Origin: Candidatus Wildermuthbacteria bacterium RIFCSPHIGHO2_01_FULL_48_27b
Lineage (GTDB): Bacteria > Patescibacteriota > Minisyncoccia > Minisyncoccales > UBA10102
Assembly (NCBI GenBank): GCA_001824915.1
Contig: MHTS01000024.1
Coordinates: 1 to 52,945, forward strand
Length of the DNA: 52,945 bases
Direction of reading: 5' to 3'
Below are positions 9,296 through 52,945 of this stretch, one piece after another. Positions within the stretch are counted from its first letter, which is position 1. The number at the start of each line of letters is the position of its first letter. The notes below the pieces were generated by a model. The model searched no databases. It was not told the DNA's origin and worked only from the letters and a program-made list of their open reading frames with translations. The position numbers were made by a program, and so were the translations under genes.

Positions 9296-9441
9296 ATATT
9301 TCGCTTTAGTAATTATACGATCGTTTGAATAATAAAGCAATGAGATTGTCTGATAGCACGGCGCGCCAAATGGTGAGGATGAGCTACATGTGGTACGCTC
9401 CTTTTTGTGGGAGGGGACTGGGCCTTTTCCTCCTGCCGCAT

Positions 9442-9470
9442 TTGCAAAAAGGCTGGCCTGCGGGTATAAT
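9442..9470 (+). promoter_or_regulatory. Sigma70-type promoter upstream of murA
   Basis: TTGCAA-17 nt-TATAAT. The ATG at 9482 is 11 nt after the -10 box and has no SD, so the leader is only about 5 nt. Confidence 0.45.
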
Positions 9471-9481
9471 AAGGCATTCCT

Positions 9482-10759
9482 ATGGAGCAATTTGTTATTC
9501 AAGGCGGCAAGCCTTTGCGAGGCGCTATAGATGTTCGTGGAGCGAAAAACGCGGCATTCCCGATTTTGGCCGCTACTATTTTAACCGATGAAGATTGTAT
9601 TGTTGAAAATCTGCCTCTCGTTGAAGACGTATATCGTATGCTAGAAATTCTTGAAGGGATGGGAGCAACCGTGGAATGGCTTGAGGAGCGGACAGTCAAA
9701 ATAAACACTCGGGCAATCAATCCCGCGAAAATCAAAAAAGACATCGTGGCTCGTTTTCGAGGATCAGTTCTTCTGATGGGGCCTTTGCTCGCCAGGTTTG
9801 GAAAAGTAAGCTTGCCTCGGCCCGGCGGCGATATCATCGGCGCGCGGCCGATCGACACCCATCTGGACGCCTTTTCACAGCTCGGCGTAAAGATTCTTGC
9901 GTCGAACGGAAAAGTGGTGCTGGAGAAACCGGAGCAATTGACCGGCGATACCGTAATTTTAAATGAGTTTTCCGTGACCGCCACGGAAAACGTGTTGTTG
10001 TTCGCGGCCTTATATCCCGGCGTCATCACGGTAAAAACCGCCGATCAGGACTACCCGATTCAGGAATTGATAAAGGCGTTGGAGCGTATGGGGGCGGGCA
10101 TTTCGTTGTCTGCGTTGCATGTAATTGAAGTGCGCGGAAAACAGCAATTGGGCGGAATGAAGCATAGACTGATGTTTGATCCGATTGAAGCTGGCACTTT
10201 TATAGTAATGGCAGCCGCGGCAAAAGGTGAGGTTCTCGTGCAGAATGTGGAAACAAGTTTTCTCGAACTTTTTTTGAAAAAATTGAAAGAATTTGGCGTG
10301 CCCATGCAGATTGAAGCGAAGCAGAATGGTTTGGCAAACATAAAAGTGTTGCCATGGAAAAAGCTCAAGATAGACTCTATACAAACATTTATTTATCCTG
10401 GCATCCATACTGATCTGCAGAGCCCTTTGGGGGTGCTGGCAACACAGGCGGCCGGGTCGACATTGCTTCATGATCCATTGTATCCCGGCCGCTTGAAATA
10501 TCTTGAAGAACTAAATAAGATGGGGGCTGAAATCTATATTGCCGACCCGCACCGTGCTATTATTAACGGACCGTGCCGTTTATTTGGCACTGACTTGGGA
10601 ACATTTGATTTGCGGGGAGGCGCCGCTATGATTATTGCCGCATTAATCGCAAAAGGGAAAAGTACTATTAGTAATATCTATCAAGTGGATAGGGGATATG
10701 AGAAAATCGAAGAAAGACTGCAGAAATTGGGCGCGGATATCAAAAGAATAACAGTTTGA
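9482..10759 (+). CDS. murA: UDP-N-acetylglucosamine 1-carboxyvinyltransferase
   Basis: MEQFVIQGGKPLRGAIDVRGAKNAAFPILAATIL...; 425 aa; typical MurA throughout. Confidence 0.95.
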   Translation: MEQFVIQGGKPLRGAIDVRGAKNAAFPILAATILTDEDCIVENLPLVEDVYRMLEILEGMGATVEWLEERTVKINTRAINPAKIKKDIVARFRGSVLLMGPLLARFGKVSLPRPGGDIIGARPIDTHLDAFSQLGVKILASNGKVVLEKPEQLTGDTVILNEFSVTATENVLLFAALYPGVITVKTADQDYPIQELIKALERMGAGISLSALHVIEVRGKQQLGGMKHRLMFDPIEAGTFIVMAAAAKGEVLVQNVETSFLELFLKKLKEFGVPMQIEAKQNGLANIKVLPWKKLKIDSIQTFIYPGIHTDLQSPLGVLATQAAGSTLLHDPLYPGRLKYLEELNKMGAEIYIADPHRAIINGPCRLFGTDLGTFDLRGGAAMIIAALIAKGKSTISNIYQVDRGYEKIEERLQKLGADIKRITV

Positions 10760-10768
10760 GTGAGAGTT

Positions 10769-11776
10769 ATGTTTATAACCAAAATCGGCATAGACCTTGG
10801 AACCTGCAACTCGCTGGTTTTTGTTCCCAAAAAAGGAGTGGTGTTGTGCGAGCCTTCGGTTGTCGCAGTTTCTTTAGCCGATAACCGTATTTTGGCGGTA
10901 GGGGAAGCGGCCAAAGAAATGACCGGGCGCACTCCCGATACTATTCAGGTATACCGGCCCTTACGCGATGGCGTGATTGCGGATTATCGAGTGACTTTGG
11001 CTATGATTCGATATTTTTTGCGGCGCATCATTCCGAAATACCAATTTATAAAGCCCGAAGTATTGGTTTCCGTGCCGGCCGGAATCACCTCAACTGAACG
11101 CCGCGCCGTGATTGAGGCTACACGTCAGGCTGGGGCGAGGGCCGCGTACGTGGCAAAAGAACCCATATTGGCTGCGATTGGGGCTGGTATTCCCATTAAC
11201 TCTTCTTCGGGGCATATGATTGTGAATATCGGTGGAGGCACTACCGAGGTTGCGGTTATCTCTTTGGGAGGGGTTGTGGTGGCAACATCGCTTCGGGTGG
11301 CTGGCGACAAGATCGATGAAGCGATTTCCGACTATATAAAAAGGAGCCATAACCTTGCGATAGGGGAAACGACCGCGGAAGAAATCAAAATAAAAATTGG
11401 CACCGCAATGCCGGAAAAAACAGAAACCATGCTGGAAATCCGCGGGCGCGATTTGATCCATGGGCTTCCCAAAAATATCAAGATTTCTTCCAATGAGTTG
11501 GCTGTGGCGATTCAAGAGCCACTCGATGAAACCATCGCTACTATCAAGGCGGTGCTTCGCGAAACACCGCCTGAACTTTCAGCCGATATTATGGATAAAG
11601 GAATGATTTTGTCGGGCGGAGGCGCGCTTCTGCGAAATATTGATCAGCGAATTTCCCAGGCAATCGGGGTGCCGTGTTTTGTGGCAGACGATCCTTTGAC
11701 ATGTGTCGCGCGCGGCGCGGGCGTCGTGCTCGATAGCCTGGATATTTTCAAACAAAGCATTATGAGTAAGCGGTAA
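10769..11776 (+). CDS. mreB: Rod-shape-determining actin homolog MreB (paralog 1)
   Basis: IGIDLGTCNSLVF..., NIGGGTTEVAVISLGG..., LSGGGALLRNID are MreB/actin phosphate and adenosine motifs. Confidence 0.9.
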   Translation: MFITKIGIDLGTCNSLVFVPKKGVVLCEPSVVAVSLADNRILAVGEAAKEMTGRTPDTIQVYRPLRDGVIADYRVTLAMIRYFLRRIIPKYQFIKPEVLVSVPAGITSTERRAVIEATRQAGARAAYVAKEPILAAIGAGIPINSSSGHMIVNIGGGTTEVAVISLGGVVVATSLRVAGDKIDEAISDYIKRSHNLAIGETTAEEIKIKIGTAMPEKTETMLEIRGRDLIHGLPKNIKISSNELAVAIQEPLDETIATIKAVLRETPPELSADIMDKGMILSGGGALLRNIDQRISQAIGVPCFVADDPLTCVARGAGVVLDSLDIFKQSIMSKR

Positions 11777-11791: not shown

Positions 11792-12529
11792 ATGGTTCAG
11801 AATTCACAAATGGATAAGCGGACATTGTTTAAGAGATTAGCGGAACGGGGTGGACTGTCGCATGCGTATTTATTCTCCGGGAACGATGAAAGGCAGAAAG
11901 ACGAATTGGTAGCGGATCTCGTCGCGTCACTGCACATTCAAACCGAAGATCGCATGATTCTCGAACCGGATCGAGATGAAATTACTATCGCACAGATACG
12001 CGGGCTCTCTTCGTTTTTCAGTATGACTGCGTGGAACTCTAAGTACAAAATCGCGCTTCTCCGCAGAGCGCATAGTATGAATCGAGAAGCGCAGTCGGCC
12101 TTCCTAAAGCTTCTGGAAGAGCCGAAAGGGGACGCGCTATTTTTTTTGCTTACTGAATACCCGGATATGCTTTTCGAAACTATCCGTTCGCGCGCGCAGG
12201 AATTTAAGTTTTACTCATTCGCTCCGCCTGAAATTTCCGACGATGCGATTGGCGAGTTCCAGAAACTTCAGAAGGCGGACCTTGGGTCGCGTTTTGCCTA
12301 CGCGAAAAAACTTGCAGATGAACCGGAACGTATTCAGCGCCTTTTACATCAATGGTTGCTCGCGATTCGGCAGATGCTCCGTACCCAGCTCGCAGAAAAC
12401 CCTCAAGATGTTTCGGCGACAGTGCGGGCAATCCGAACCATTCAGGAAACTCTTTTGCTTTTGCGTACCACCAATGTCAGCCCGCGTCTCGCCCTAGAGC
12501 GCGTTATGCTTAACCTCGCGGCAAATTGA
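11792..12529 (+). CDS. holB: DNA polymerase III delta' subunit-like clamp-loader protein
   Basis: HAYLFSG..., AQSAFLKLLEEPKGDALFFLLT and SRAQEFKF (sensor motifs of delta'/gamma-like AAA+ proteins); 245 aa. Confidence 0.7.
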   Translation: MVQNSQMDKRTLFKRLAERGGLSHAYLFSGNDERQKDELVADLVASLHIQTEDRMILEPDRDEITIAQIRGLSSFFSMTAWNSKYKIALLRRAHSMNREAQSAFLKLLEEPKGDALFFLLTEYPDMLFETIRSRAQEFKFYSFAPPEISDDAIGEFQKLQKADLGSRFAYAKKLADEPERIQRLLHQWLLAIRQMLRTQLAENPQDVSATVRAIRTIQETLLLLRTTNVSPRLALERVMLNLAAN

Positions 12530-14198: not shown

Positions 14199-15443
14199 AT
14201 GCGCCAGTCCAAACTTTTTACCAAGACGCAAAAAACGCTTCCGAAAGGCGAGGAAAGCAAAAATGCCCAACTTTTAATTCAGGCTGGGTTTATTCACAAA
14301 GAAATGGCAGGGGTGTACTCGTTTTTGCCTTTGGGCAAACGTGTAATGGAAAACATTATGCGCATAATTCGCGAAGAAATGAACGTCATTGGCGGACAAG
14401 AGTTGCTCTTAACCGGGCTTCAAAATCCTGAAATATGGCAAACATCGGGCCGTTGGGCAGACGAGGCTGTGGACATATGGTTTAAAACAAAGTTAAAAAA
14501 CGATACGGAAATTGGGTTAAGCTGGACGCACGAAGAGCCTTTAACCGCGCTTATGCGCAACCATATTTCTTCGTATCGGGATCTGCCAGTGTACGTGTAC
14601 CAAATGCAAACAAAGTTTCGGAACGAGTTGCGCGCGAAAAGCGGCATTATGCGCACGCGCGAATTTATTATGAAAGACTTGTACTCGTTTTGCAAAAATG
14701 AAGAAGAGCACAAGGCATTTTATGAAAAGGCAAAGCAAGCATACATAAAAATATTCGATCACGTTGGTTTGGGCCACGTAACCTATGTTACCATGGCTTC
14801 TGGCGGAAGTTTTGCGAAATACTCGCACGAATTTCAAACGCTAACCGCGGCAGGTGAAGACATTATTTACATAGACGAACAAACGAAGGAGGCGGTGAAC
14901 GAAGAAATAATAGCCGACAAAGATTTGGGATACGACAAAAACAAGCTGCGAAAAGAAAAGGCGGTAGAGGTGGGAAATATTTTTACCCTGGGAACTAAAT
15001 ACTCGGAAGTGCTCGGTTTGCAGTATCAAGACGATCAAGGAAATAAACGGCCCGTGTTTATGGGCAGTTACGGAATTGGTCCGGCTCGCGTTATGGGTAC
15101 AATTGCTGAGTTATTCGCCGACGAAAAAGGGTTGGTGTGGCCTTCTTCGGTAGCGCCTTTCCTCGCCCATTTGCTTTGTTTATCGGACTCAGTGGAAGAA
15201 GCCGACGCGCTGTATGAACAGTTGCAAAGCGTGGGGATTGAGGTATTGTATGATGATAGGCACGGCATGAGCGCGGGGGAAAAATTTGCCGATGCCGATT
15301 TAATCGGCATTCCCTGGCGCCTTGTTATAAGCGACAAAACACTTGCTTCAAAAAGCGCAGAAGTGAAAGCACGACAAAGTAAAGAGATTGAGCTTGTGCC
15401 GTTGCGAGAACTGCCAAACTATCTGCAATCGAAAATTTCTTGA
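14199..15443 (+). CDS. proS: Proline--tRNA ligase (short form lacking the bacterial INS editing domain)
   Basis: MRQSKLFTKTQKTLPKGEESKNAQLLIQAGFIHKEMAGVYSFLPLG and class II motifs (FRNELRAKSGIMRTREF). At 414 aa it is much shorter than INS-containing bacterial ProRS. Confidence 0.85.
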   Translation: MRQSKLFTKTQKTLPKGEESKNAQLLIQAGFIHKEMAGVYSFLPLGKRVMENIMRIIREEMNVIGGQELLLTGLQNPEIWQTSGRWADEAVDIWFKTKLKNDTEIGLSWTHEEPLTALMRNHISSYRDLPVYVYQMQTKFRNELRAKSGIMRTREFIMKDLYSFCKNEEEHKAFYEKAKQAYIKIFDHVGLGHVTYVTMASGGSFAKYSHEFQTLTAAGEDIIYIDEQTKEAVNEEIIADKDLGYDKNKLRKEKAVEVGNIFTLGTKYSEVLGLQYQDDQGNKRPVFMGSYGIGPARVMGTIAELFADEKGLVWPSSVAPFLAHLLCLSDSVEEADALYEQLQSVGIEVLYDDRHGMSAGEKFADADLIGIPWRLVISDKTLASKSAEVKARQSKEIELVPLRELPNYLQSKIS

Positions 15444-15450
15444 CTCATTT

Positions 15451-16509
15451 ATGCGATTTATCAGAAACACATTATCCCGATTGGGGAATGACATCGCGAT
15501 TGATTTGGGCACTGCCAATTCGTTGGTTTATGTGAAGGGAAAGGGGATTGTGATTCAGGAACCCACGGTGGTTGCTATTAATCAAAAGACTGGAAGGGTG
15601 CTTGCCATAGGAGAGGAAGCGAAAAAAATGGTGGGGCGCACTCCCATTCATATTGTGGCAATGCGGCCGTTGGCAAAAGGCGTTATTTCGGACTTCGAGG
15701 TTACCGAGCAAATGCTTAGGTATTTCATCGCTAAAGCGTGTCCCCGGAAGTTCATCCTTAGTCCTGGACCTCGCGTGATTGTGGGAATTCCTTTTGGCGT
15801 AACTGAAGTTGAGAAAAAAGCAGTGCGAGATGCCACGCTTTCCGCGGGAGCGCGCGAAGTTTTTTTAATTGAAGAGCCTATGGCTGCTGCCATTGGCGCG
15901 AGGCTCGCGGTGCAAGAACCTGGCGGGAATTTCATTGTGGATATCGGCGGGGGCACTACCGAGGTTGCCGTCTTGTCGCTTGGCGGAGTGGTGTACGCAA
16001 AATCACTCAGGATCGCGGGCGATAAATTAAACGAAGACATTATTCACTTTGCGCAGGAAGAATACAAGCTTTTCATCGGGGAGCGCACCGCGGAGGCGCT
16101 CAAGATTGGAATTGGTTCTGCGTATCCCTTGAAAGAGCGGAAAGAAGTGCCCCTCCGGGGCAGAAATTTGGTTACGGGTTTACCCGAAGAGATTATGGTT
16201 TCCGATACAGATATTCGCCGCGCAATGGAGCGTTCTGTGCGGCAAATAGTCAACGAAGTTAAGGCCACGGTAGAAGAAACGCCGCCCGAACTTCTCGCAG
16301 ACATTATGTGCAGAGGAATTTTTCTTGCGGGAGGAGGAGCGCTTCTTCGTGAGCTCGACACGCTCATTACGAAAGAGACAAAAATTCCCACGCGCATTGT
16401 GGAGGATCCTTTGACCGCGGTGGTGAGAGGTGCGGGTTTGGTTCTTGAAAATCTCGATGAACTCTGCGATGTATTGTCAGAAGCAGAAGATTTAGAGCCG
16501 CCCAAATAG
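15451..16509 (+). CDS. mreB: MreB paralog 2
   Basis: AIDLGTANSLVYV..., DIGGGTTEVAVLSLGG..., LAGGGALLRELD. Clearly a paralog of 10769-11776 (roughly half the positions are identical by eye). Confidence 0.85.
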   Translation: MRFIRNTLSRLGNDIAIDLGTANSLVYVKGKGIVIQEPTVVAINQKTGRVLAIGEEAKKMVGRTPIHIVAMRPLAKGVISDFEVTEQMLRYFIAKACPRKFILSPGPRVIVGIPFGVTEVEKKAVRDATLSAGAREVFLIEEPMAAAIGARLAVQEPGGNFIVDIGGGTTEVAVLSLGGVVYAKSLRIAGDKLNEDIIHFAQEEYKLFIGERTAEALKIGIGSAYPLKERKEVPLRGRNLVTGLPEEIMVSDTDIRRAMERSVRQIVNEVKATVEETPPELLADIMCRGIFLAGGGALLRELDTLITKETKIPTRIVEDPLTAVVRGAGLVLENLDELCDVLSEAEDLEPPK

Positions 16510-18800: not shown

Positions 18801-18871
18801 CGCGGGGTAGTGGAGTAGTACCATGCGAGGCCCATAACCTTGTGACGCCGGTGCAATTCCGGCCCCCGCAA
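18801..18871 (+). tRNA. Initiator-like tRNA-Met (CAU) with a non-canonical D-loop, T-loop and position 33
   Basis: The acceptor stem CGCGGGG/CCCCGCA with a C1:A72 mismatch, and the T-stem GCCGG/CCGGC, closely resemble E. coli tRNA-fMet. The anticodon loop is CCCATAA. Oddities: the D-loop AGTAGTA lacks GG, the T-loop is TGCAATT (G at position 55), position 33 is C, and CCA is not encoded. Confidence 0.6.
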
Positions 18872-18893
18872 CATACAGGCAGTAGGGATAACA

Positions 18894-18979
18894 GGGCATT
18901 TCTTAACGGATTGCGGTCGCCTCGACGGCGACATCGCAATCCTAAAATGCCCCACAAAATTCAAGCAGTTGAATTTTGT
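18894..18979 (+). other. Two stable hairpins filling the spacer between the two tRNA-Met genes
   Basis: The first is a nested hairpin: GGGCATTT..GGATTGCG-GTCGCC-tcga-(c)GGCGAC-at-CGCAATCC..AAATGCCC (18894-18952). The second is ACAAAATTCAA-gcag-TTGAATTTTGT (18954-18979), which ends exactly at the 5' end of the next tRNA. Confidence 0.5.
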
Positions 18980-19053
18980 GCCAGGGTAGCTCAGTTGGTT
19001 AGAGCGAAGGACTCATAAGCCTTAGGTCGTGGGTTCGATTCCCACCCCTGGCA
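18980..19053 (+). tRNA. tRNA with anticodon CAU (elongator Met, or Ile2 if lysidine-modified)
   Basis: Canonical cloverleaf: GCCAGGG/CCCTGGC acceptor, D-loop AGTTGGTTA, anticodon loop CTCATAA, T-loop TTCGATT; 74 nt, no CCA encoded. Confidence 0.85.
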
Positions 19054-19199
19054 CACGATTTTTGTCTAAACTTCTTAGTTTAGGTATAAAAATCAGCGGC
19101 CTGAGATAGCCGAAGGACAAAGTCCCTCGACTTCGCTCGGGACGCTAAATTTCGCAAGCCAATCACATTTCGCTTCGCTCATGTTCTTGGGCGAAATTT

Positions 19200-19277
19200 G
19201 CGGGCGTAGCTCAGCTGGTTTAAAGCGCTTCCCTGTCACGGAAGAGATCGTGGGTTCGAATCCCATCGCCCGCGCCA
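19200..19277 (+). tRNA. tRNA-Asp (GUC)
   Basis: GCGGGCG/CGCCCGC acceptor, anticodon stem-loop CTTCC-CTGTCAC-GGAAG, T-arm GTGGG-TTCGAAT-CCCAT, discriminator G, CCA encoded. Confidence 0.9.
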
Positions 19278-42173: not shown

Positions 42174-42202
42174 TTGACAAATTACACAATAATAGGTAAA
42201 AT
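42174..42202 (+). promoter_or_regulatory. Near-consensus sigma70 promoter of the orphan cassette
   Basis: TTGACA-17 nt-TAAAAT. Confidence 0.5.
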
Positions 42203-42243: not shown

Positions 42244-42624
42244 ATGAAGGCAAAATTCTACCAACTCCAGTCCAAACTTGGGCTTGTGAAGTTCCTTGAG
42301 ATGGGTGCTGGAGAACAAGATGCAGAGACTACTACCGGTAAAACTGATGCTCTTCTCGCCGGAGCCTGCTACCCTCCCCTCGATCTTACTAGCATAGGAT
42401 TGGGGAAGGTATACGAGTACATGTTCCGAGGCTATGGGGAAGGCGTCGCGGGCTTACTCCTACGAATTGCCGATGCTCTCAACCAAAAAGAGGTTCGTCG
42501 CCACGAGATCTGGACAGTAGATCAAACAAAGGACCCTCCCCTGCTTATTGGCGTAACTTTCACACTGTCGCCGCACGAGGTGTTATTCATAGTTTTAGAC
42601 GAAATCAATGCTCTTGCTAGTTAA
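42244..42624 (+). CDS. Hypothetical protein (orphan, opposite strand to flanking thrS and dnaE)
   Basis: SD GGAGGA 5 nt before the ATG at 42244; 126 aa; no recognisable domain; followed by the structured element. Confidence 0.5.
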   Translation: MKAKFYQLQSKLGLVKFLEMGAGEQDAETTTGKTDALLAGACYPPLDLTSIGLGKVYEYMFRGYGEGVAGLLLRIADALNQKEVRRHEIWTVDQTKDPPLLIGVTFTLSPHEVLFIVLDEINALAS

Positions 42625-42646
42625 CGAGGGGACACAAGAACAACAG

Positions 42647-42800
42647 GGGCAGGCGACGAGAAGTCCAAACCTTCTTTCGCCTGCCCACTCTTATTGAGTT
42701 CATCAACAAATTGATGGGTTCAACAGGAGTTCCAGTACTTTTAAATATACATCCGCCGCTTCATAGCGGCGAAACGGACATTACTCCAGAAACGCTTAAA
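42647..42800 (+). ncRNA. Structured element, copy A of a 3-copy family
   Basis: Helix 1 GGGCAGGCGA..TCGCCTGCCC (42647-42686). Helix 2 TCATCAA-caaa-TTGATGG (42700-42717). GAGT..CTTTTAAA linker. Hairpin CGCCGC-ttcata-GCGGCG containing the 17-mer CGCTTCATAGCGGCGAA (42757-42773), which is identical to 52907-52923. Confidence 0.45.
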
Positions 42801-43015
42801 ACAATTGATTGAAGGAAGTGGAAACAAGTGGTAGTGTTCGTATCACTGCTATGAAGCAGGGGAGCGCGGCTTCGGTCGCACCTCTGCTGCTTCTATCAAA
42901 GTTCACAAAAGTAAACAAAAGCAACTACTACGAAATATTGCATATGCGGAAATTCGTAGTGCTGTAGTACGCATTATGGTAGTGAGGCAATAAAGCTTTT
43001 ATGGATTTTGATAGA

Positions 43016-43046
43016 AACAAAACCTGACAGTTGCTGTCGGGTTTTG
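43016..43046. terminator. Bidirectional hairpin terminator at the 3' end of dnaE
   Basis: AAAACC(T)GACAG-ttg-CTGTCGGGTTTT, with T-runs on both strands. Confidence 0.6.
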
Positions 43047-43048
43047 TT

Positions 43049-46000
43049 TTAGGAGGCGACAATTTCCTCGACTTCTTCGGCGAGGAATTTTTTTTCGCCG
43101 TCTCGGCTGTCGAGACGCCCGGTTATAAACACCATCTTATTCTCTTGCAGGGCGGTCGGATAGCGCTCAATCACCGAAGGGAACACCACGACTTCGATAC
43201 GGTCGGTTAAATCCTCCAGATTTACAAAAAGCATGGGCTTCCCAGTCTTGGTAATAATTCTTTTTACCGAAGAAATAATACCTCCGATGCGCAAACGCTC
43301 GCGTTGCCGGCTAAACTGAAACTTATACCGCGTATTTTGAATCTCCTGCACTGCCTCTTGCAGCGAGTGGATCGCCAACGCCCTGCTCTCCAAAATGTTT
43401 TTGATCGCTTTCAAAGGATGAGAAGTAACATATAATCCCAGCAGTTCCTTTTCCCAAAGCAAAAGCTCTGACTCTTTTGCGGGTTCTGTGGCTTCCAGCA
43501 CGAGTGAAGAATGATTCTGTTCTGCCGGCTGGCTGTCGAACAAACCTTTTTGCCCATTGGCTTTTGTTTTCTGATTTTCACGCGCAACAGTGAGCAATCG
43601 CTCCATGTTTTTTAGGAGCTGATTGCGCTCGCCGAACTGATCGAATACGCCGGCTTTTACCATGCTTTCCATTGATTTCTTGTTCAAATCTTTTGTTGCC
43701 ACGCGCGTTACAAAATTTTGAATCGCCAGATAAGGGCCGTTCCCTTTGCGTTCTTGAATAATGGACGCCACAATCCCTTCGCCCACGTTTTTGATGGCCA
43801 ATAGCCCAAAGCGAATCTGATTTTTGGCCGGCACGGCAGAAAAAAAGGCGAAGCTCTCGTTCACGTCGGGAGGCAGCACTTCAATGCCCATTTTTCTCGT
43901 TTCCTCGATCAAGAACGCGATACGTTCAACATCGTTGCGTTCTGAAGTTAAAAGAGCGGACATATACTCCAAAGGATAATTTGCCTTGAGCCAAGCGGTC
44001 TGGTAGGCAATGGTGGCGTAGCACGCCGCATGGCTTCTATTAAAACCATAGCTCGCGAAAGGCTCGATAAAATCAAAAACGCTTTCCGCGATTTTCTTTG
44101 AAGTTCCGGCGGCGACTGCTCTTTCAACAAATTTTACTTTTTGCTCCTCCAAGAGCGTCTTTATCTTTTTGCCGATGGCTTTGCGGAGAATATCTGCCTC
44201 TCCATAGGAAAATCCGGCAAGTTCTCGCGCCACCTGCAGAATTTGTTCCTGGTACACGGCAATCCCATACGTATTGCGTAAAATGGGTTCTAGCTTTGGA
44301 TGCAAATACCGAATTTCTTTTTCTCCATGCTTGCGGGCGATGTAGTCGGGAATAAGTTCCATGGGACCCGGCCGATAAAGCGCAACCATCGCGATAATGT
44401 CTTCAAACTCGGTTGGCTTCAATTCTTTTAAGTATCTCCGCATACCGCCACTTTCCAATTGAAATACTCCGGTTGTATCGCCCGCCTGCAAAAGCTTATA
44501 CACTTTTGGATCATTCAAAGGGATAGTATCGATATCAATATTTTTGCCGCGAATGGCGTATATGCGCTTGAGCGTTTCTTCAATAATGCTCAAGTTTTTC
44601 AAACCCAGAAAATCCATTTTCAGAAGGCCGATGTCTTCCACGCTGTGCATTTCGTATTGGGTAACTATCGCCTCGTCGTTTTGCGTGGGGTGCTGCAGAG
44701 GCACGCGCGTATCCAAGGGTTCCGCGGCAATCACCACGCCGCACGCGTGCGTGGAAGCATGGCGCGCGACGCCCTCGAGTTTTTTGCCCAAATCAATCAG
44801 GCGTTTTGCCTTTTCATCTTCCTCATACAGAGTTTTAAATTCGTCTACCTGTTCTAAAGCCTCTGTGAGCGAAGATCCAAAAGGAATCATCTTTGCCGCG
44901 CGATCGCAGTATCCATACTCATATTCAAGCGCGCGCCCTACATCGCGTATCACGGCGCGCGAGGCCATCGTTCCAAATGTAATAATTTGCGCCACGCGGT
45001 CCCGCCCGTATTTTTGAGCCACGTATTCTATAACTTCGTCACGCCTGGTGTCCGCAAAATCCAAATCAATATCAGGCAGAGAAACGCGCTCTGGGTTCAA
45101 AAATCGCTCAAACAAAAGCTTATAGCGAATCGGATCAACGTTTGTAATCTTGAGCAAGTAAGCCACAATGGACCCGGCGGCAGATCCGCGGCCCGGCCCC
45201 ACCACAATGCGGTTTTGTTTTGCCCAATTCACAAAGTCTTGCACAATTAAAAAGTAGGCGGCAAATCCGGTTTGGCGAATCACATCGAGTTCATATTCCA
45301 ACCGGTCGACTGCTTCTTTGGAATCTTTATATTGCGGCTTCTCTCGCAATCCCTGATAACAGAGTCCTTTGAGGTATTCGTTTGCCGTCTTTCCTTGAGG
45401 GAGCGGGAATTCTGGAAGCAAATTTTTCCCGAGCTCTATTTCGAGGCTGCACGCGTCAACTATTTTTTGGGTATTTTCCAAGGCTTCCGGAATATCTTTG
45501 AAAAGTTCTGCCATTTCTTCTGCGCTTTTGAGAGAAAAGTCGTCTCCCTTAAGGCTTAAGCGCTCAGAATCCCCGTTTTTCGCGCCCGTGTTAATGAGCA
45601 TTAAGATGTCTTGCGCTTCCGCGTCGTCTTTTCGCAGATAATGCGAATCGGCAGTTGCCACCAAAGGAATACCGGTGCGCTTGGAGATTGCGATCAATTC
45701 TTTGTTTACTGTTTCTTGTTCTTTGATATTCGGATGATTTTGCAGCTCCAAATAATAATTCCCTTTGCCGAATATATCTTGGTACCGCAGAGCGATTTTC
45801 TCCGCTTCAGCAAGTTTGCCTGCCAAAATCGCGCGGGAAACTTTTCCCGCCAAACACGCAGAAAGAGCAATAAGACCATCCGCGTGCTGCGCCAACAACT
45901 TTTCATCCACGCGAGGCTTATAGTAGAACCCATCCAAGTGGGCGCGGGTCAAGAGTTTTACGAGATTTTTATATCCTTTTTCGTTTTTGACGAGAAGAAT

Positions 46001-46270
46001 TAAGTGATAAATCGTGTCGTCCACGCCCGGGCGCTTATCTGCCATATTTTCAAACGCCAAATAAATTTCGCATCCCAAAATTGGTTTAATGCCCTTTGCT
46101 TTCGCTTTTTTGTAAAACTCCACCGCGCCATATAGATTGCCGTGATCGGTTAGAGCCACTGTGTCCATATTAAGCTCCCGCACCCTATCCAAAAGCTGGT
46201 CTATTTTCGGCAGACCATCCAAAAGGGAATAGTGACTATGCACATGGAGATGAGTAAATTGAGAAGACAT
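43049..46270 (-). CDS. dnaE: DNA polymerase III alpha subunit
   Basis: MSSQFTHLHVHSHYSLLDG (PHP domain), ...PDIDLDF..., 1073 aa with a C-terminal OB fold. Confidence 0.95.
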   Translation of the reverse strand: MSSQFTHLHVHSHYSLLDGLPKIDQLLDRVRELNMDTVALTDHGNLYGAVEFYKKAKAKGIKPILGCEIYLAFENMADKRPGVDDTIYHLILLVKNEKGYKNLVKLLTRAHLDGFYYKPRVDEKLLAQHADGLIALSACLAGKVSRAILAGKLAEAEKIALRYQDIFGKGNYYLELQNHPNIKEQETVNKELIAISKRTGIPLVATADSHYLRKDDAEAQDILMLINTGAKNGDSERLSLKGDDFSLKSAEEMAELFKDIPEALENTQKIVDACSLEIELGKNLLPEFPLPQGKTANEYLKGLCYQGLREKPQYKDSKEAVDRLEYELDVIRQTGFAAYFLIVQDFVNWAKQNRIVVGPGRGSAAGSIVAYLLKITNVDPIRYKLLFERFLNPERVSLPDIDLDFADTRRDEVIEYVAQKYGRDRVAQIITFGTMASRAVIRDVGRALEYEYGYCDRAAKMIPFGSSLTEALEQVDEFKTLYEEDEKAKRLIDLGKKLEGVARHASTHACGVVIAAEPLDTRVPLQHPTQNDEAIVTQYEMHSVEDIGLLKMDFLGLKNLSIIEETLKRIYAIRGKNIDIDTIPLNDPKVYKLLQAGDTTGVFQLESGGMRRYLKELKPTEFEDIIAMVALYRPGPMELIPDYIARKHGEKEIRYLHPKLEPILRNTYGIAVYQEQILQVARELAGFSYGEADILRKAIGKKIKTLLEEQKVKFVERAVAAGTSKKIAESVFDFIEPFASYGFNRSHAACYATIAYQTAWLKANYPLEYMSALLTSERNDVERIAFLIEETRKMGIEVLPPDVNESFAFFSAVPAKNQIRFGLLAIKNVGEGIVASIIQERKGNGPYLAIQNFVTRVATKDLNKKSMESMVKAGVFDQFGERNQLLKNMERLLTVARENQKTKANGQKGLFDSQPAEQNHSSLVLEATEPAKESELLLWEKELLGLYVTSHPLKAIKNILESRALAIHSLQEAVQEIQNTRYKFQFSRQRERLRIGGIISSVKRIITKTGKPMLFVNLEDLTDRIEVVVFPSVIERYPTALQENKMVFITGRLDSRDGEKKFLAEEVEEIVAS

Positions 46271-48288: not shown

Positions 48289-48732
48289 ATGGCTAGCCGG
48301 CACCTTGCGCGTTCCATAGCAATGCAGTCCTTGTACGAATGGGACTTTTACGGCAAGCAAAAGGAATTGGCAGAAACAGTAGAACGCAATATCAAAGAGT
48401 TTGGTCCGGGGCTGGAAGAAGGAAATAAAGACTTTGTGCGGCGGCTCGCCTTGGGCGTACGTGAAAACCTGCAGTCGCTCAATTCCATTATTGAAAAGGC
48501 GGCGCCCGAATGGCCGCTCGATCAAATAACTCTTGTGGATCGTAATGTATTGCGCCTTGGCCTTTACGAACTTATATACGGCAACAAAGAAGAAGTGCCG
48601 CCCAAGGTGGCGATTAACGAAGCAATCGAACTTGCAAAAAACTTCAGCGGCGAATCATCAGGCAAGTTCGTCAATGGAGTGCTGGGCACCGTATTCCGCG
48701 AATTAGAAGCAACGCAACAACAAAATGGCTGA
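48289..48732 (+). CDS. nusB: Transcription antitermination factor NusB
   Basis: [18 protein letters not shown]..., [24 protein letters not shown].... Confidence 0.9.
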
Positions 48733-49417
48733 ACTTTCTCAACTTGAATCAACATTGAAGCTGCCCTTCAAAAATAAAGACTTGCTACAACAAGCGTTCG
48801 TTCACCGTTCGTATCTCAACGAAAATCGAGACTTCCATCTTCAACACAATGAAAGGCTCGAGTTTCTGGGAGACGCGGTGCTCGAACTGGTTGTTACCGA
48901 ATATCTATACTCAAAGTACCCTGATAAGCCGGAGGGGGAACTTACCGCCTGGCGCGCCGCGCTGGTAAACACCAAAATGCTTTCTTCTATTGGCAGAGAA
49001 CTGAACTTTAGCGATTACTTACTGCTCTCGCACGGGGAGGCGAAAGAAGAAGGCAAGGCAAGAGACTATATTCTGGCAAACACGGTGGAAGCCTTCATTG
49101 GCGCCCTATACCTTGACCAAGGCTTGAAAAACTCCGGAAAATTTATTACAACATATATACTGTCCAAACTTGCGGGAGTGCTGGAGGACGAACTATTTTT
49201 AGACTCCAAATCTCGCTTTCAGGAGTTAGCACAGGAGAAAGCGGCCATTACCCCCACATACACCGTATTAAAGGAATGGGGGCCTGACCACGCCAAGCAT
49301 TTCCACATCGGCGTATATCTGGATAAAGAACTGGTGGCAAACGGAGAGGGCTCTTCCAAACAGGAAGCAGAGCAAAATGCAGCAAAAAATGCCCTCGCAG
49401 AAAAAAACTGGAAATAG
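48725..49417 (+). CDS. rnc: Ribonuclease III
   Basis: [21 protein letters not shown] (RNase III signature) and a C-terminal dsRBD (GPDHAKHF...[16 protein letters not shown]). Confidence 0.9.
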
Positions 49418-49425
49418 TAAACATT

Positions 49426-49875
49426 ATGCTAACAATTCGTTTATTTCGCGTAGGAAGAAAAAATCAGCCGGCGTTTAAGATTGTCGTCTGCGACAAGCAA
49501 AACGCCGCTTCAAGGGGACGCTTCGTGGAGGAAGTGGGTTTTTATGATCCCTTAACTAAGCAGCGCAACCTAAAAGGGGATAGGGTAAAATACTGGTTAT
49601 CCGTAGGCGCAAAAGCTTCTCCCACGGTTCACAATATGCTTGTAACAGATAAAGTGGTAGAGGGGCCCAAAATAGCCAAACATAAGCTCTCCAAGAAGCC
49701 TGCCTCGCCAATCGGCGGGCCTGCCTCGCCGAACGCGAGTCAAGGCGGGCCTGCAGAGCAGGCCACGGAGCAAGCCGTACCCCCGAAAGCCGAGGAAACT
49801 CCAGATGCACCTGAAACAACCTTACCAACAGCTCCTGAAAATTCTCCTTCCGAAACTCCGCAGAAAGCTGCCTAA
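49426..49875 (+). CDS. rpsP: 30S ribosomal protein S16 with long C-terminal extension
   Basis: MLTIRLFRVGRKNQPAFKIVVCD...VGFYDPL.... The tail beyond about residue 85 contains the GC-rich repeats. Confidence 0.9.
   Translation: MLTIRLFRVGRKNQPAFKIVVCDKQNAASRGRFVEEVGFYDPLTKQRNLKGDRVKYWLSVGAKASPTVHNMLVTDKVVEGPKIAKHKLSKKPASPIGGPASPNASQGGPAEQATEQAVPPKAEETPDAPETTLPTAPENSPSETPQKAA
49698..49750. repeat. GC-rich imperfect palindrome, tandem copies in-frame in the rpsP tail
   Basis: GCCTGCCTCG-ccaatc-GGCGG[GCCTGCCTCG]-N12-CAAGGCGGGC encodes PASPIGGPASPNASQGGP. Confidence 0.8.
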
Positions 49876-49887
49876 CTTACAACTAAC

Positions 49888-49917
49888 TTAGACAGCTTTT
49901 TGCTTTTATGGTATAAT
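49888..49917 (+). promoter_or_regulatory. Promoter with extended -10, leaderless spacing
   Basis: TTAGAC-18 nt-(TGg)TATAAT, then 6 nt to the ATG at 49924. Confidence 0.45.
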
Positions 49918-49923
49918 GCATGC

Positions 49924-50130
49924 ATGTACAACTGGTCAACAAACGAAAAGGCGCTGAAAAAAAACAAGGAACATTATGCCATTTGGAGACTGGAACAAAT
50001 GGTGAATTTTGGTTTGCATGGGAAAAAGCTAAAGATAAGCGAGCTACGAAAATATTGGGACAAACTGCAAATTGATCCTGTGCGAAGGCAATTTTTGCAA
50101 CTATTTTTGCATGGAAAACGGAATCCTTAG
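49924..50130 (+). CDS. Small protein upstream of the AbiEii-like gene (candidate antitoxin/partner)
   Basis: 68 aa, MYNWSTNEKALKKNKEHYAIWRLEQMVNFGL.... Overlaps the downstream nucleotidyltransferase gene by 20 nt, a toxin-antitoxin-like layout. The function is inferred from context only. Confidence 0.45.
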   Translation: MYNWSTNEKALKKNKEHYAIWRLEQMVNFGLHGKKLKISELRKYWDKLQIDPVRRQFLQLFLHGKRNP

Positions 50131-50770
50131 CCAAATCCAGCTTGCTTTTCTCGGAGAACTTGGTAAACAAGAATTTATCCGAAAGAACTTCTATTTAACT
50201 GGCGGCACTGCGCTCGCCGCATTTTATTTAGGCCATCGATATTCAGAAGATCTTGATTTTTTTTCCGAGAAAGAGTTCGATATTTTGCAGATTGACGTGC
50301 TTTTAAAAGGTTTTCAAGTAAAATTTGGCATTCTCAATATTGATTTCCAAAACAGCTTTAACCGCAATCTCTTCTTTCTGCACTTGAAAGATGAAATTCT
50401 AAAAATCGAATTCACATATTTCCCCTTTACGCGTATCGAAAAGGGAATACAAGAATGGGGGATAGAGATAGATTCGCTTCTTGATATTGCGGTCAATAAA
50501 CTTTTTTCCGTTTATCAACGCACAAAAGCCCGCGATTATATTGACCTCTATCTTTTGTGCAAAGAAAAGAGCTTTACCATAGGAGAGTTGATGCAAAAAG
50601 CACGGCTGAAGTTTGACTGGCATATCGATGCTCTTCAGCTTGGTACCCAGTTTATGAAAGCGAAAGATGCACAGGATTATCCCCGAATGATTCGGGAAAT
50701 CTCACCCAAAGAGTGGCAGAATTTCTTTGTGGAAGAAGCAAAAAAACTTGGACAGGAGATTATTGAGTAG
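50111..50770 (+). CDS. Nucleotidyltransferase of the AbiEii/AbiGii (DUF1814) toxin family
   Basis: FYLTGGTALAAFYLGHRYSEDLDFF is the characteristic AbiEii N-terminal NTase motif; 219 aa counted from the ATG at 50111. Confidence 0.7.
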   Translation: MENGILSQIQLAFLGELGKQEFIRKNFYLTGGTALAAFYLGHRYSEDLDFFSEKEFDILQIDVLLKGFQVKFGILNIDFQNSFNRNLFFLHLKDEILKIEFTYFPFTRIEKGIQEWGIEIDSLLDIAVNKLFSVYQRTKARDYIDLYLLCKEKSFTIGELMQKARLKFDWHIDALQLGTQFMKAKDAQDYPRMIREISPKEWQNFFVEEAKKLGQEIIE

Positions 50771-50815
50771 CACAAATGGTGTTTGAATGTGTGAAGCCTC
50801 GCTTCACACATGTCT

Positions 50816-51094
50816 TCAAAAACCTCCGATGCCCAGTGAACGGAGAGTGGCCTGAACCGAGAGGTTTTCGGTGTTTTGAAGTTTCACGTTTTCTTCGCCA
50901 AAACGCTCGCGCAGCGGCGTGAGAAATTCGTCTGCCCACGAGGGAGATAGCACCACAACCTCCGCAAAATCCACGACGACAGAATCTGTTCCTTCCGGAA
51001 GCGAATATGCCTGCGCGGCAAGCCAAACCTCGCGCCCCGCAGGCCTTGAAATCAACATTGTGCCGAATTTTTTGAGGAAAATAGTGGTTGTCAT
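50816..51094 (-). CDS. STAS-like DUF4325-type protein
   Basis: ...RPAGREVWLAAQAY...VVVDFAEVVVLSPSWADEFLTPL... resembles the DUF4325 pattern (xLDFxGV..xxxSFxDEF); 92 aa. Confidence 0.55.
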   Translation of the reverse strand: MTTTIFLKKFGTMLISRPAGREVWLAAQAYSLPEGTDSVVVDFAEVVVLSPSWADEFLTPLRERFGEENVKLQNTENLSVQATLRSLGIGGF

Positions 51095-51364: not shown

Positions 51365-51393
51365 TTGACATTTTTGGGGAAGTATGCTATACT
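51365..51393 (+). promoter_or_regulatory. Near-consensus sigma70 promoter, divergent from the DUF4325 operon
   Basis: TTGACA-17 nt-TATACT, the same hexamers as at 20793. Confidence 0.55.
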
Positions 51394-52027
51394 GTAGGCA
51401 ACAATAAAATACTGGCTTTGCGGGTGGAAGGAGAGAGCCACCGGCAAATAATAAAGATACATACGATTGCACATATCACAATTACCCAATCAGCTCTCCC
51501 CAAAAGGAGAGTTGATTGTTTAAAGGAGGAGGAACAGAAGATTCTTCCCCCATACCCTTCAGCCCATCATGCAGCGCATGACGAATTGAAGGGTAACGAT
51601 AGCACCCAAAACTTGAGAAAGGAGGAGGCCGTGAATACGTACTTCGTCGTCAATGGTCTCGTCTTCACGAAGCGTGAAGACGCCGTGGCCTACAAGCAAT
51701 CTTGCAAGTAGGTCGCGGGGGATCGGGGCGACGCGGTATATATACATGCGACTCTCTCCGATCCCTTAAGCTCAAGACTATAAGCAAAGCTCGAGGCCGT
51801 GAGTTTGAGGGATCGGATAGAATTAGAAGAGTTCAACAGGGGTTAGTACATAAAAATCAAAAACCGTGCTTTCTCTACTTAATTCGTCTTCAGCGATTTG
51901 GCCGAGGTATTTGGCTGAATCGTTGGAGACGAGAAGTAGGGTGAGATGCGACTCGTCGAAGATCTCTTCTTGAGTGTCGAAGAACGACAAAGAAAACTCA
52001 CGAAGAGTGCCAAGAAAGGCAGAAAAA

Positions 52028-52447
52028 ATGTCTACAGGGGTTTTTTTCCTGGTGCTGTGTCTCCTGACCGCCGTGGGGGTTGGCGGGGTTATCGCCATTG
52101 TCACGTGGGCGGAACGGCACCCCTCGTTCCGCACCGTGTTCGGCTTCAAGCCAAGCACGAGAGGGTCCAGGCTCCGCACTGCGGAGCAGAAGCGGGTTGA
52201 AGGCCAGCTATCGGCACTGGCCATCGATTACGCCGCATGGGATGCGGCCGAGAGGAGGGCCCCGAACTCTCCAAGCGGACAGTTCAAGAGATGGCACGAG
52301 CAGGAGAGGCGGCGCCTCGCGAATGTGAGGCGGGCCCTGGAAGCCGCGAAGGCGCGTTTCTGGCGGGCCCACGGGCTCGCCGCGAAGAAGGAGTTCAGTG
52401 TATGTAATAAATACACTGACTATCTTCAGAACGCAACCCATCGGTAA
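52028..52447 (+). CDS. GC-rich hypothetical protein with N-terminal TM helix and Arg/Ala-rich helical region
   Basis: The ATG at 52028 gives MSTGVFFLVLCLLTAVGVGGVIAIVTW..., then ...RRLANVRRALEAAKARFWRAHGLAAKK. It is followed by a hairpin and by structured element copy 1. Confidence 0.5.
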   Translation: MSTGVFFLVLCLLTAVGVGGVIAIVTWAERHPSFRTVFGFKPSTRGSRLRTAEQKRVEGQLSALAIDYAAWDAAERRAPNSPSGQFKRWHEQERRRLANVRRALEAAKARFWRAHGLAAKKEFSVCNKYTDYLQNATHR

Positions 52448-52480
52448 AGCATAGAAGGATGCGTCTCACCACGCATTCTA

Positions 52481-52620
52481 GGCGAGAGAGCAAAGGTTAA
52501 TCCCTTTCTCTCCCGCCCCCATACTTGAGTCCATGAGTAAGTTCGTGGGCTGAAGAGTGGATAGCTCTTTCAAAACCTTCGGGGTGGCGATGAGTCCTTA
52601 GACAAGCTAAAGATTCATTG
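52481..52620 (+). ncRNA. Structured element, copy 1
   Basis: Helix 1 GGCGAGAGAGCAAAGG-ttaat-CCCTTTCTCTCCCGCC (52481-52517). Helix 2 GTCCATGA-gtaagt-TCGTGGGC (52529-52550). About 100 nt align to 52806-52900 with about 8 differences. Confidence 0.45.
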
Positions 52621-52656
52621 CCGCTCCGGAGAAAATCTGGAGTGAAGGAGAAAAAA

Positions 52657-52773
52657 ATGCCCGAATGTTTTGAGAAACAGTGGGGGACGTGTGAGGGGGA
52701 ACTCGTCTATGCAGACGAGTTTCACGCCTTCTTGTGCGAGAAGCACCTGAAGGCGGCGCGCAGGAGGGACTAG
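52657..52773 (+). CDS. 38-aa Cys/His-containing mini-ORF between the two element copies
   Basis: SD GAAGGAG 7 nt upstream of the ATG. MPECFEKQWGTCEGELVYADEFHAFLCEKHLKAARRRD* (C-x7-C ... H-x3-C-x2-H). Confidence 0.35.
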   Translation: MPECFEKQWGTCEGELVYADEFHAFLCEKHLKAARRRD

Positions 52774-52805
52774 GATCCTTCCGCCCGAGGCGGAAAAGGG
52801 TCTAA

Positions 52806-52945
52806 GGCGGGGGAACAAAGGTTAATCCCTTTCTCTCCCGCCCCATACTTAAGCCCATGAGTAAGTTCGTGGGCTGAAGAGTGGATAGCACTTTCAAAAT
52901 TATAGTCGCTTCATAGCGGCGAAGTGAACATTAGCCAGATACATT
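52806..52945 (+). ncRNA. Structured element, copy 2 (runs off the window end)
   Basis: Helix 1 at 52806-52842. Helix 2 GCCCATGA-gtaagt-TCGTGGGC (52853-52874). Hairpin GTCGC-ttcata-GCGGC containing the 17-mer shared with copy A (52907-52923). Confidence 0.45.

Follow-up and report, generated by a model that had tools for sequence, protein, structure and literature searches.

Conserved, strand-specific structured elements mark accessory-cassette boundaries in Candidatus Wildermuthbacteria and other Parcubacteria

The DNA analyzed here (hereafter the window; 52,945 nucleotides (nt), contig MHTS01000024.1) is part of the bacterial chromosome of Candidatus Wildermuthbacteria, a Candidate Phyla Radiation (CPR)/Parcubacteria bacterium from groundwater, and its last few hundred nucleotides carry two copies of a structured intergenic element that is the subject of this analysis. 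The last 10 kb of the window encode dnaE (43049-46270, minus strand), RNase HII, L32, nusB, RNase III and S16 (49426-49875); upstream of these lie rpoA, a murA-like gene, two mreB paralogs, aminoacyl-tRNA synthetase genes, gatA/gatB and thyA. The end of the window falls within an island that splits the conserved rpsP-khpA-trmD neighborhood and includes a cassette array of ~8 kb. The island contains an AbiEii/DUF4325 gene pair followed by ~10 small open reading frames (ORFs) that have no Pfam, PHROG, NCBIfam or PADLOC match, a result that holds also for the 139-amino acid (aa) ORFan preceding the first copy of the element. The same DNA is present on 17 public contigs, including GenBank MHUH01000020.1, and we retrieved, with the 139-aa ORF as a handle, six contigs (L001-L006) that are longer, come from the same species and are at least 99.6% identical. 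Taken together, the observations described below show that the element belongs to a conserved family of structured elements, supported by covariation and specific to the plus strand, whose members delimit accessory cassettes in promoter-headed arrays and have recombination breakpoints in or next to them.

The two copies at the window end (copies 1 and 2; Table 1), which had been reported in an initial annotation made from the sequence, are direct repeats on which a repeat search, MAFFT and blastn agree (92.7% identity over 96 nt, E 2e-29, with seven substitutions and one single-base indel), and no further copies were detected in the window at the level of blastn. They are not merely a recent local duplication, the circumstance under which that annotation would have abandoned its structural interpretation: the similarity ends at both edges of the element without reaching into the ORFs, and copies exist elsewhere. 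Each copy starts behind the stop codon of an ORF (TAA, 52445-52447, and TAG, 52771-52773) and a small hairpin, the first of these hairpins not being conserved with its counterpart before copy 2, and copy 1 is followed by the Shine-Dalgarno sequence (SD) GAAGGAG and the ATG (52657) that opens a 38-codon Cys/His mini-ORF; the repeated module of ORF, element, SD and small ORF that had been proposed is supported. At L001 15090-15187, 4.3 kb past the window end, a third, near-identical copy (copy 3) lies behind a 155-aa membrane ORF. The entire ~245-nt spacer, that is, the post-stop hairpin, both hairpins of the element, the sequence tail that follows them and a long leader hairpin, is common to copies 2 and 3, although their upstream ORFs are unrelated. 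In the GenBank contig of a metagenome-assembled genome (MAG), L002, the leader behind copy 3 (leader B) contains a 47-nt tandem duplication (15241-15258, compared with L001 15211) that is lacking in the ENA assemblies and may be either a real strain variant or an assembly artifact at the repeat.

On the plus strand, copies 1 and 2 fold into two adjacent hairpins with energies of -49.8 and -52.7 kcal/mol, respectively, well below those of shuffled sequences (z -3.8 and -6.2), whereas their reverse complements fold only to -42.9 and -43.1 kcal/mol. The initial annotation correctly described the replacement of a U.G pair in helix 2 of copy 1 by C-G in copy 2 and, in helix 1, the change of the 5' arm from GGCGAGAGAG to GGCGGGGGAA against an invariant 3' arm CTCTCCCGCC, which swaps A.C for G-C and A-U for G.U; it missed that the last change turns a G-C pair into an A.C mismatch. 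Among the three near-identical copies no pair is changed on both sides, so that these copies alone provide weak covariation; the strong evidence for a genuine structure comes instead from the diverged family.

Across this family the element is 60-110 nt long, with ends that read AAGG... and ...CAAAAY. Hairpin H1 is GC-rich, 12-17 base pairs (bp) in length, free to vary in sequence, tied to the gene upstream and absent from some copies. Hairpin H2 is irregular and ~17-20 bp long. Its outer stem (CUCC/GGAG or CCAU/GUGG) is separated by a small internal loop from a middle stem (YUGAG/YUCAA), and a bulge leads on to an inner stem, the base of which is conserved, with AGUUCA paired with UGRAUU through fixed G.U wobbles. 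H2 is followed by a conserved unpaired tail, AUAG-YW-CUUU-S-AAAA. Downstream of the tail, before the next ribosome-binding site, most spacers contain a third hairpin, H3 (AGCGGCGAAnUGnACAUUAG...UUAGUGUUCAnCUCGCCGCU), of which the leader behind copy 1 (leader A) is a short version; the full hairpin (that of leader B, at L001 10874-10990) is conserved in seven places in four genomes and includes many G.U pairs. The internally looped H2 comprises 17 pairs and H3 19 or more. The conserved core is helix 2 with the tail, helix 1 is variable and optional, and the repeated unit is the entire ~245-nt intergenic spacer with H3, none of which had been recognized in the initial annotation. Two other structural features were rejected: a tRNA-like minihelix (H1 of copy 3 has GGTTCAATCC and that of one relative GGTTCGAATCC, followed by CCA) was ruled out because the H1 loops are unrelated in most family members, and a closing third helix, formed by the 5' AAG with the CUU of the tail, finds no supporting covariation in the alignment.

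The structure is supported by 30 distinct copies, in which, in an alignment that was fitted to the model, 91.6% of the cells are paired compared with 61.8% in shuffles, cells with changes on both sides number 271 compared with 80 in shuffles, and 30 of the 32 pairs covary; pairing falls to 41-50% when the partners are slid against each other. As an independent check, 27 H2-plus-tail sequences were folded singly and mostly adopted the same single irregular hairpin with a largely unpaired tail. G.U pairs in H2 outnumber A.C pairs 79 to 18, and the plus strand folds better in 23 of the 27 copies, by 5.6 kcal/mol on average (p 5e-5), while H1 lacks such asymmetry (12 G.U and 11 A.C). The fold of H2 and the tail is therefore specific to the plus strand.

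Two covariance models were employed for the delineation of the family, R1 from the three near-identical copies and R2 from 13 diverse copies, and loci for comparison were retrieved with the protein family of a 256-aa cargo gene (see below) as an anchor, yielding 73 metagenome, 8 genome and 3 viral loci; degenerate DNA patterns, which were tried for a scan of sequence collections, had a sensitivity of at most 6/30 and produced too many chance matches. R1 found copy A, an upstream member that the initial annotation had placed in the same family (64 bits with R2), along with diverged copies behind other island ORFs and copies in a related Wildermuthbacteria contig (L007). R2 found ~35 distinct copies in contigs of Candidatus Wildermuthbacteria, Giovannonibacteria (RIFCSPLOWO2_01_FULL_46_13) and other Parcubacteria, and weak matches in one Saccharibacteria MAG. 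The copy-bearing genomes and contigs span 26-58% GC, and H2 and the tail are conserved with covariation across this range; 39 of the 42 model matches lie on the array strand. Within the window, an unfiltered model search recovered no more than three strong copies (42646, 52479 and 52804) and three weak ones (42853, 51523 and 51722), all on one strand and confined to two accessory spots, and part of the last of these weak members is 86% identical to L007 1463-1517. A scan of the window with Rfam 15 at gathering scores returned three tRNAs only and no family match to the element, a permissive scan (E<=10) of L001 8700-18000 returned only chance-level microRNA or snoRNA matches, an exact 24-mer of the element is not in IMG/VR, and we found no relevant papers on integrons, attC or intergenic repeats in CPR, Patescibacteria or Parcubacteria. 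The element appears to be undescribed in sequence, architecture and host.

Table 1. Features of the two element-bearing spots of the window, with the RNase III gene (R1 and R2, the covariance models described in the text)
Feature	Position	Strand	Remarks
Sigma-70-type promoter TTGACA-17-TAAAAT of the single cassette bearing copy A	42174-42202	+	
126-aa ORFan between thrS (-) and dnaE (-)	42245-42624	+	
Copy A, diverged family member	42646-42747	+	R1 44 bits, R2 64 bits
H3/leader-B hairpin after copy A	42752-42855	+	No ORF behind
Possible second H2-type core CTATCAAAGTTCA...TGGATTTTGATAG	42853-43023	+	Long apical insert; weak (R2 with filters off, 18.9 bits, E 0.017)
RNase III gene (rnc)	48725-49417		
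AbiEii nucleotidyltransferase toxin gene	50072-50770	+	Left edge of the island
DUF4325 gene	50816-51094	-	Convergent to AbiEii
Strong sigma-70-type promoter TTGACA-17-TGcTATACT	51365-51393	+	Heads the island
Weak family member	51523-51611	+	R1 and R2 ~16 bits; followed by SD and 26-codon ORF (51631-51711)
Weak family member	51722-51832	+	R1 13.3 bits, R2 12.6 bits; second tail-like motif TTCAACAGGGGTTAGTAC
139-aa ORFan preceding copy 1	52028-52447	+	N-terminal membrane helix; called as gene on 17 public contigs
Small post-stop hairpin GGATGCGT-CTCACC-ACGCATTC	52457-52478	+	Read from sequence
Element copy 1	52480-52576	+	H1 52481-52517, H2 52519-52560, tail ATAGCTCTTTCAAAAC 52561-52576; R1 110 bits, R2 88 bits
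Leader A	52577-52656	+	Hairpin GGTGGCGATGAGT...ATTCATTGCCGC(T)C, hairpin CTCCGGA-GAAAA-TCTGGAG, SD GAAGGAG 52644-52650
38-codon Cys/His mini-ORF MPECFEKQWGTCEGELVYADEFHAFLCEKHLKAARRRD	52657-52773	+	From ORF list; called as gene on one contig, L003; putative
Post-stop hairpin CCTTCCGCC-CGA-GGCGGAAAAGG	52777-52799	+	Common to copy 3; start of the copy 2/copy 3 similarity block
Element copy 2	52804-52900	+	H1, H2, tail ATAGCACTTTCAAAAT; R1 116.6 bits, R2 94.7 bits
Start of leader B/H3 (TATAGTCGCTTCATAGCGGCGAAGTGAACATTAGCC...)	52901-52945	+	Cut by the window end

With respect to genomic context, full elements begin 0-90 nt behind the stop codon of a co-oriented ORF, and the copies adjoin only ORFans, toxin-antitoxin genes (PIN, HicAB) or defense genes (AbiEii). 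The expectation that the array continues past the window end is borne out insofar as nearly every ORF of the island is followed by a family member, but there is no tight tandem array. All copies of an array share one orientation, even where the genes of a cassette are reversed. Canonical sigma-70 promoters head the arrays, in the window (Table 1) as well as near 8030 and 8100 of contig L009 (GCA_043814215.1). Plus-strand sites resembling a promoter are otherwise few in the L001 island, and those in its cassette array are only weak (9/12 matches), lie in leader B and are not conserved; there is no conserved sigma-70-type promoter within the unit, and a promoter inside the element itself was rejected for lack of a consistent -35/-10 pair. 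The sole canonical plus-strand terminator of the L001 island is located at its far end.

Several observations on individual parts of the island are recorded here. The only match to the Cys/His mini-ORF among the fetched loci is a weak one (tblastn, L061/L062, 48% over 27 aa, E 0.05), and the mini-ORF is a putative coding sequence. Between the copy 1 tail (CUCUUUC) and the SD of this ORF ~75 nt downstream there is perfect complementarity, while the tail of copy 2 can form only four to five pairs; this complementarity could be due to chance or could offer an option for masking of the SD. Some 0.5-1.5 kb past the window end (L001 11438-12375), ~940 nt of GC-rich DNA with many hairpins, one H2-type core (11916-12011, 26.7 bits), no Rfam match and no convincing ORF may represent decayed cassettes or a large non-coding RNA. 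Contigs of one sequencing run (X14) join 49803 to 50865 at the left edge of the island, which points to a related strain without AbiEii; in the Logan contigs no cassette indels were found, only contig breaks induced by the repeats and this one AbiEii-lacking strain.

Evidence on gene movement comes from a two-gene module, coding for a helix-turn-helix (HTH) protein and the 256-aa protein, that is 85% identical between L001 (12659-14479) and L007 (9096-10961) and occupies different chromosomal sites in the two, namely, the rpsP-khpA island in L001 and the interval between an F420-ligase gene and rplJ in L007. The similarity starts right after a tail motif and stops at the module's own tail, and the H1 hairpins of the two modules are entirely different, whereas the H2 hairpins are 97% identical. 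The rpsP-khpA island of L007 lacks the module; its loss is joined at 13 nt of homology that the 3' arm of the upstream H2 (GATTCAAGAAGAGG) shares with the 3' end of the 256-aa ORF (CATTCAAGAGGAGG), with both flanking elements kept; this deletion is homology-driven and not a tail-to-tail excision. More generally, leaders, H1, H2 and ORFs are found in differing combinations: leader A recurs behind a different element at L001 14497-14585 and L007 2823-2900, and within the same samples there is a copy of it in another genomic context (loose contig ends at 52572 and 52630). Cassette order, too, differs between related genomes, a possibility that the initial annotation had raised. The 256-aa gene is also present, without the element, in a phage-like contig and three viral contigs, in none of which a copy was found; therefore, the element belongs to the chromosomal platform and not to the cargo.

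The 256-aa family itself (L001 13568-14338; relatives P0001-P0052) combines an N-terminal CxxC...CxxC zinc ribbon with an all-beta body, travels with the HTH protein and is represented in CPR arrays, cyanobacteria and phage contigs. The idea that it is a hidden recombinase was discarded on the basis of a confident AlphaFold model (pLDDT 87) that shows an all-beta fold with the zinc ribbon, and the protein has no relative in the PDB by sequence or by fold. The phage-like contig L010 (5890-9470), which carries RecA, ribonucleotide reductase and SMC-like genes, contains its own, unrelated set of repeated intergenic modules, with a GC-rich hairpin after each stop codon and a hairpin of the type GCCCGG-CCCGGGC just before each SD; the layout is equally punctuated, and the sequences differ from those of the element family.

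On the strength of these observations, the explanation that we favor, with a probability of roughly 0.4, is that the elements are RNA punctuation modules involved in 3'-end protection or processing, the repetition of which drives gene shuffling in a manner similar to that of the PeSL motifs of T4-type phages. Under this hypothesis, each array would be transcribed from the one strong promoter at its head as a long plus-strand RNA, in which H1 and H2 would constitute a 3' protective or processing module for the upstream cistron. An endoribonuclease could then cut at the single-stranded, A/U-rich tail or within the long duplexes of H2 and H3, with H3 conceivably becoming the protective 5' end of the next cistron. 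Candidate nucleases are available in the form of the RNase III encoded in the window (Table 1) and RNase Y on contig L091 of a related genome. Being present at every gene boundary, the modules would, moreover, supply short homologies for the insertion, deletion and swapping of genes. By analogy with the PeSL motifs, the region as a whole would qualify as a gene-shuffling platform, a designation that the data described above support in part.

Several points weigh against the RNA punctuation hypothesis. Transcription, cleavage and stabilization are all steps that we infer. Strand-specific folding would also fit a site that is used as single-stranded DNA of that strand. Furthermore, the unfiltered model search detected no element after the housekeeping operons of the window, and therefore the elements are not general expression signals of the organism. 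The most serious difficulty is posed by L009, where three core-only copies (H2 and tail) on the plus strand separate three cassettes that are encoded on the minus strand, one for PIN with a small partner, one for HicAB and one for a 100-aa ORF. Of these reversed cassettes, two have their own near-consensus sigma-70 promoter abutting a core element, the third possesses only a TTGACT box at that position, and the inner stems of the three core-only copies differ and yet stay paired. It follows from this layout that H1 goes with the forward gene, whereas H2 and the tail go with the cassette boundary, and that the orientation of the array is kept. Such reversed cassettes would need no mRNA 3' module, and a cassette site acting at the level of DNA would explain them naturally.

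These considerations bring to the fore the alternative that best survives, unlikely as we hold it to be, namely, that H2 with the tail is an attC-like recombination site, unrelated to attC itself, of an integron-like gene-capture system in CPR/Parcubacteria. The site would fold in plus-strand single-stranded DNA, a recombinase encoded at another locus would cut it within the tail or immediately behind it, and cassettes comprising leader, ORF and element would be captured successively, in one orientation, behind a promoter, giving rise to promoter-headed arrays of ORFan, toxin-antitoxin and defense cassettes in genomes of ~1 Mb. This proposal accounts for the single orientation of the sites in each array whatever the orientation of the genes, including the reversed toxin-antitoxin cassettes, as in chromosomal integrons, and thus explains the L009 arrangement better than the RNA punctuation hypothesis. 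It is also in keeping with the strong head promoter and the lack of promoters in most cassettes, with the nature of the cargo, with the borders of the L001/L007 module, the left one just behind a tail motif and the right one at the tail of the module itself, with the assignment of the element to the platform, and with the restriction of the elements to accessory spots. Nevertheless, the arrays of L001, L009 and L091 contain, on either strand, not one RYYYAAC...GTTRRRY core pair (~0.4-0.7 expected by chance), and the strand that folds is the coding strand of most cassettes rather than the bottom strand. Searches of the window, of ~9.5 kb beyond it and of the ~10 kb flanking the L009 and L091 anchor genes on each side yielded no integron integrase IntI and no tyrosine or other recombinase. 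The one deletion with base-level resolution arose at a microhomology within H2, with both flanking elements kept, the recombination of leaders and elements is independent of the ORFs, and abundant conserved G.U pairs are more typical of RNA; all three facts are explained worse by a recombination site than by RNA punctuation. Among the functions suggested in the initial annotation, a recombination or attachment site is still a candidate, as is a 3'-UTR or processing module; identity with a canonical attC site does not hold.

The remaining explanations are less likely than these two. A selfish, non-autonomous repeat of the REP/BIME (repetitive extragenic palindrome/bacterial interspersed mosaic element) or MITE (miniature inverted-repeat transposable element) type, spreading in intergenic DNA without any role for the flanking genes, would fit the presence of several palindromic, intergenic copies per genome, some of them more than 90% identical. 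We nonetheless deem it improbable given that the elements lack terminal inverted repeats and target duplications, that they occur in a single orientation, only at the boundaries of accessory cassettes and not among the housekeeping operons of the window, and that H2 and the tail are conserved with covariation across such a broad range of GC content; a two-ended element of the IS200/IS605 type was likewise rejected, the left ends of the cassettes not being conserved. We see just as little reason to favor a factor-independent or factor-dependent terminator that makes each cassette its own transcription unit, a possibility suggested by the strong GC-rich hairpin directly behind stop codons and by two copies, copy A and L009 10908-11029, that lie between convergent genes with no ORF behind them. 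A terminator scan found no U-run after H1 or H2 at any element, even though the same DNA uses canonical hairpin-plus-U-run terminators elsewhere (window 43026-43048; L001 17665-17705; L009 11036-11049, minus strand); furthermore, most downstream cassettes lack a promoter of their own, and termination does not require the conserved sequence of H2 and the tail. Least probable of all is a cis-regulatory leader of the small ORF that follows (a translational operator or riboswitch-like element), one of the functions put forward in the initial annotation, or a free-standing small RNA gene: the complementarity between the copy 1 tail and the SD of the mini-ORF, and the position of H3 and a small hairpin just before the SD, speak for it, but the two copies between convergent genes have no downstream ORF, near-identical spacers precede unrelated ORFs, no promoter stands in front of the element and there is no Rfam match.

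Beyond the two element-bearing spots, the window has a few further features. Matches of its DNA polymerase and topoisomerase to PHROG first suggested a phage origin, which is ruled out by the identity of the genes (dnaE, gyrB-like, rpmF, nusB, rnc, rpsP, aminoacyl-tRNA synthetases and mreB), and no phage DNA matching the region was found. The two MreB paralogs (10760-11776 and 15388-16509) account for a direct repeat, D1 (11210-11326 and 15925-16041, 71%). A tRNA cluster at 18801-19277 comprises tRNA-Met, tRNA-Met and tRNA-Asp, the first tRNA-Met having the lower score (51 bits) and the mismatched first acceptor pair that are expected of an initiator tRNA. A 259-aa protein encoded on the minus strand (8723-9502) combines a PaaX-type central Cas2-like domain with a winged helix, an uncommon type of regulator for a reduced genome. 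Finally, contig depth over the C-terminal low-complexity tail of S16 (49666-49787), which also harbors a 3-nt indel variant, is 10- to 20-fold above that of the surroundings in all runs, with sequence common to many community members mapping there.

In the tiny genomes of CPR bacteria few mobile elements are recognized and a very large proportion of the genes has no known function, and the ways in which these bacteria acquire and express accessory genes are poorly understood. The family described here provides a recognizable signature of ~100-250 nt for the location, the bounds and the reading strand of accessory cassettes, and with a covariance model the flexible gene pool of Parcubacteria could be mapped straight from metagenomes. 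Should the elements prove to be RNA processing or stability modules, they would constitute a new class of structured RNA with an unusually clear context; should they be recombination sites, they would represent a second, independent invention of the integron principle.

In kind, the element is a variant of elements already known to punctuate intergenic regions or to bound cassettes, among which RNase III sites, REP sequences, attC sites and PeSL motifs are the most pertinent. The RNase III sites of the early mRNA of phage T7 are irregular hairpins of ~20 bp with internal loops that separate the cistrons of a polycistronic transcript, have sequence in common and, when cut, leave a protective 3' hairpin on the upstream message. 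The structure of H2 and H3 is compatible with such an irregular duplex of about two turns, RNase III is encoded in the window and cleavage is predicted; in contrast to the T7 sites, the element has an additional variable hairpin and a conserved unpaired tail and keeps its orientation around reversed genes. The REP/BIME sequences of enterobacteria, intercistronic or 3' palindromes of ~35 nt that can stabilize the upstream mRNA and act as recombination hot spots, are dispersed over the whole genome in hundreds of copies of alternating orientation and are mobilized by the RAYT transposase. The element, by contrast, is 60-110 nt long, has one orientation and is found in accessory arrays only, and no Y1 transposase was detected in the window.

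There are also parallels with attC sites, in particular with clusters of attC sites lacking integrase (CALIN) (PMC4889954). Like these, the elements are imperfect, structured palindromes located at the 3' end of small cassettes that mostly lack promoters, are arranged in one orientation behind a promoter, include among their cargo reversed toxin-antitoxin cassettes with promoters of their own along with many ORFans and, as in CALIN, have no integrase in the neighboring stretches searched. The element is devoid of the R'' (RYYYAAC) and R' (GTTRRRY) cores and consists of two hairpins with a conserved single-stranded tail, whereas attC is one R/L-box hairpin with extrahelical bases; it folds on the coding strand, in contrast to the recombinogenic fold of attC, which forms in the bottom strand; its breakpoints are not confined to one crossover point; and its hosts have very small genomes, which have been reported to lack complete integrons (PMC4889954). 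The PeSL motifs of T4-type phages, composed of a terminator stem-loop and an early promoter (PMC2839356, PMC4122927), similarly differ from the CPR unit, which has no promoter, is much larger, with three structured domains, and is chromosomal in CPR bacteria while being absent from the related phage contigs examined. Both, however, are short conserved composite signals between small ORFans, in the hyperplastic regions of the phage genomes in the case of the PeSLs, and, just as the PeSLs are points of homologous exchange at which unrelated ORFs are swapped, the breakpoints of the element fall within a motif that separates small, variable ORFs.

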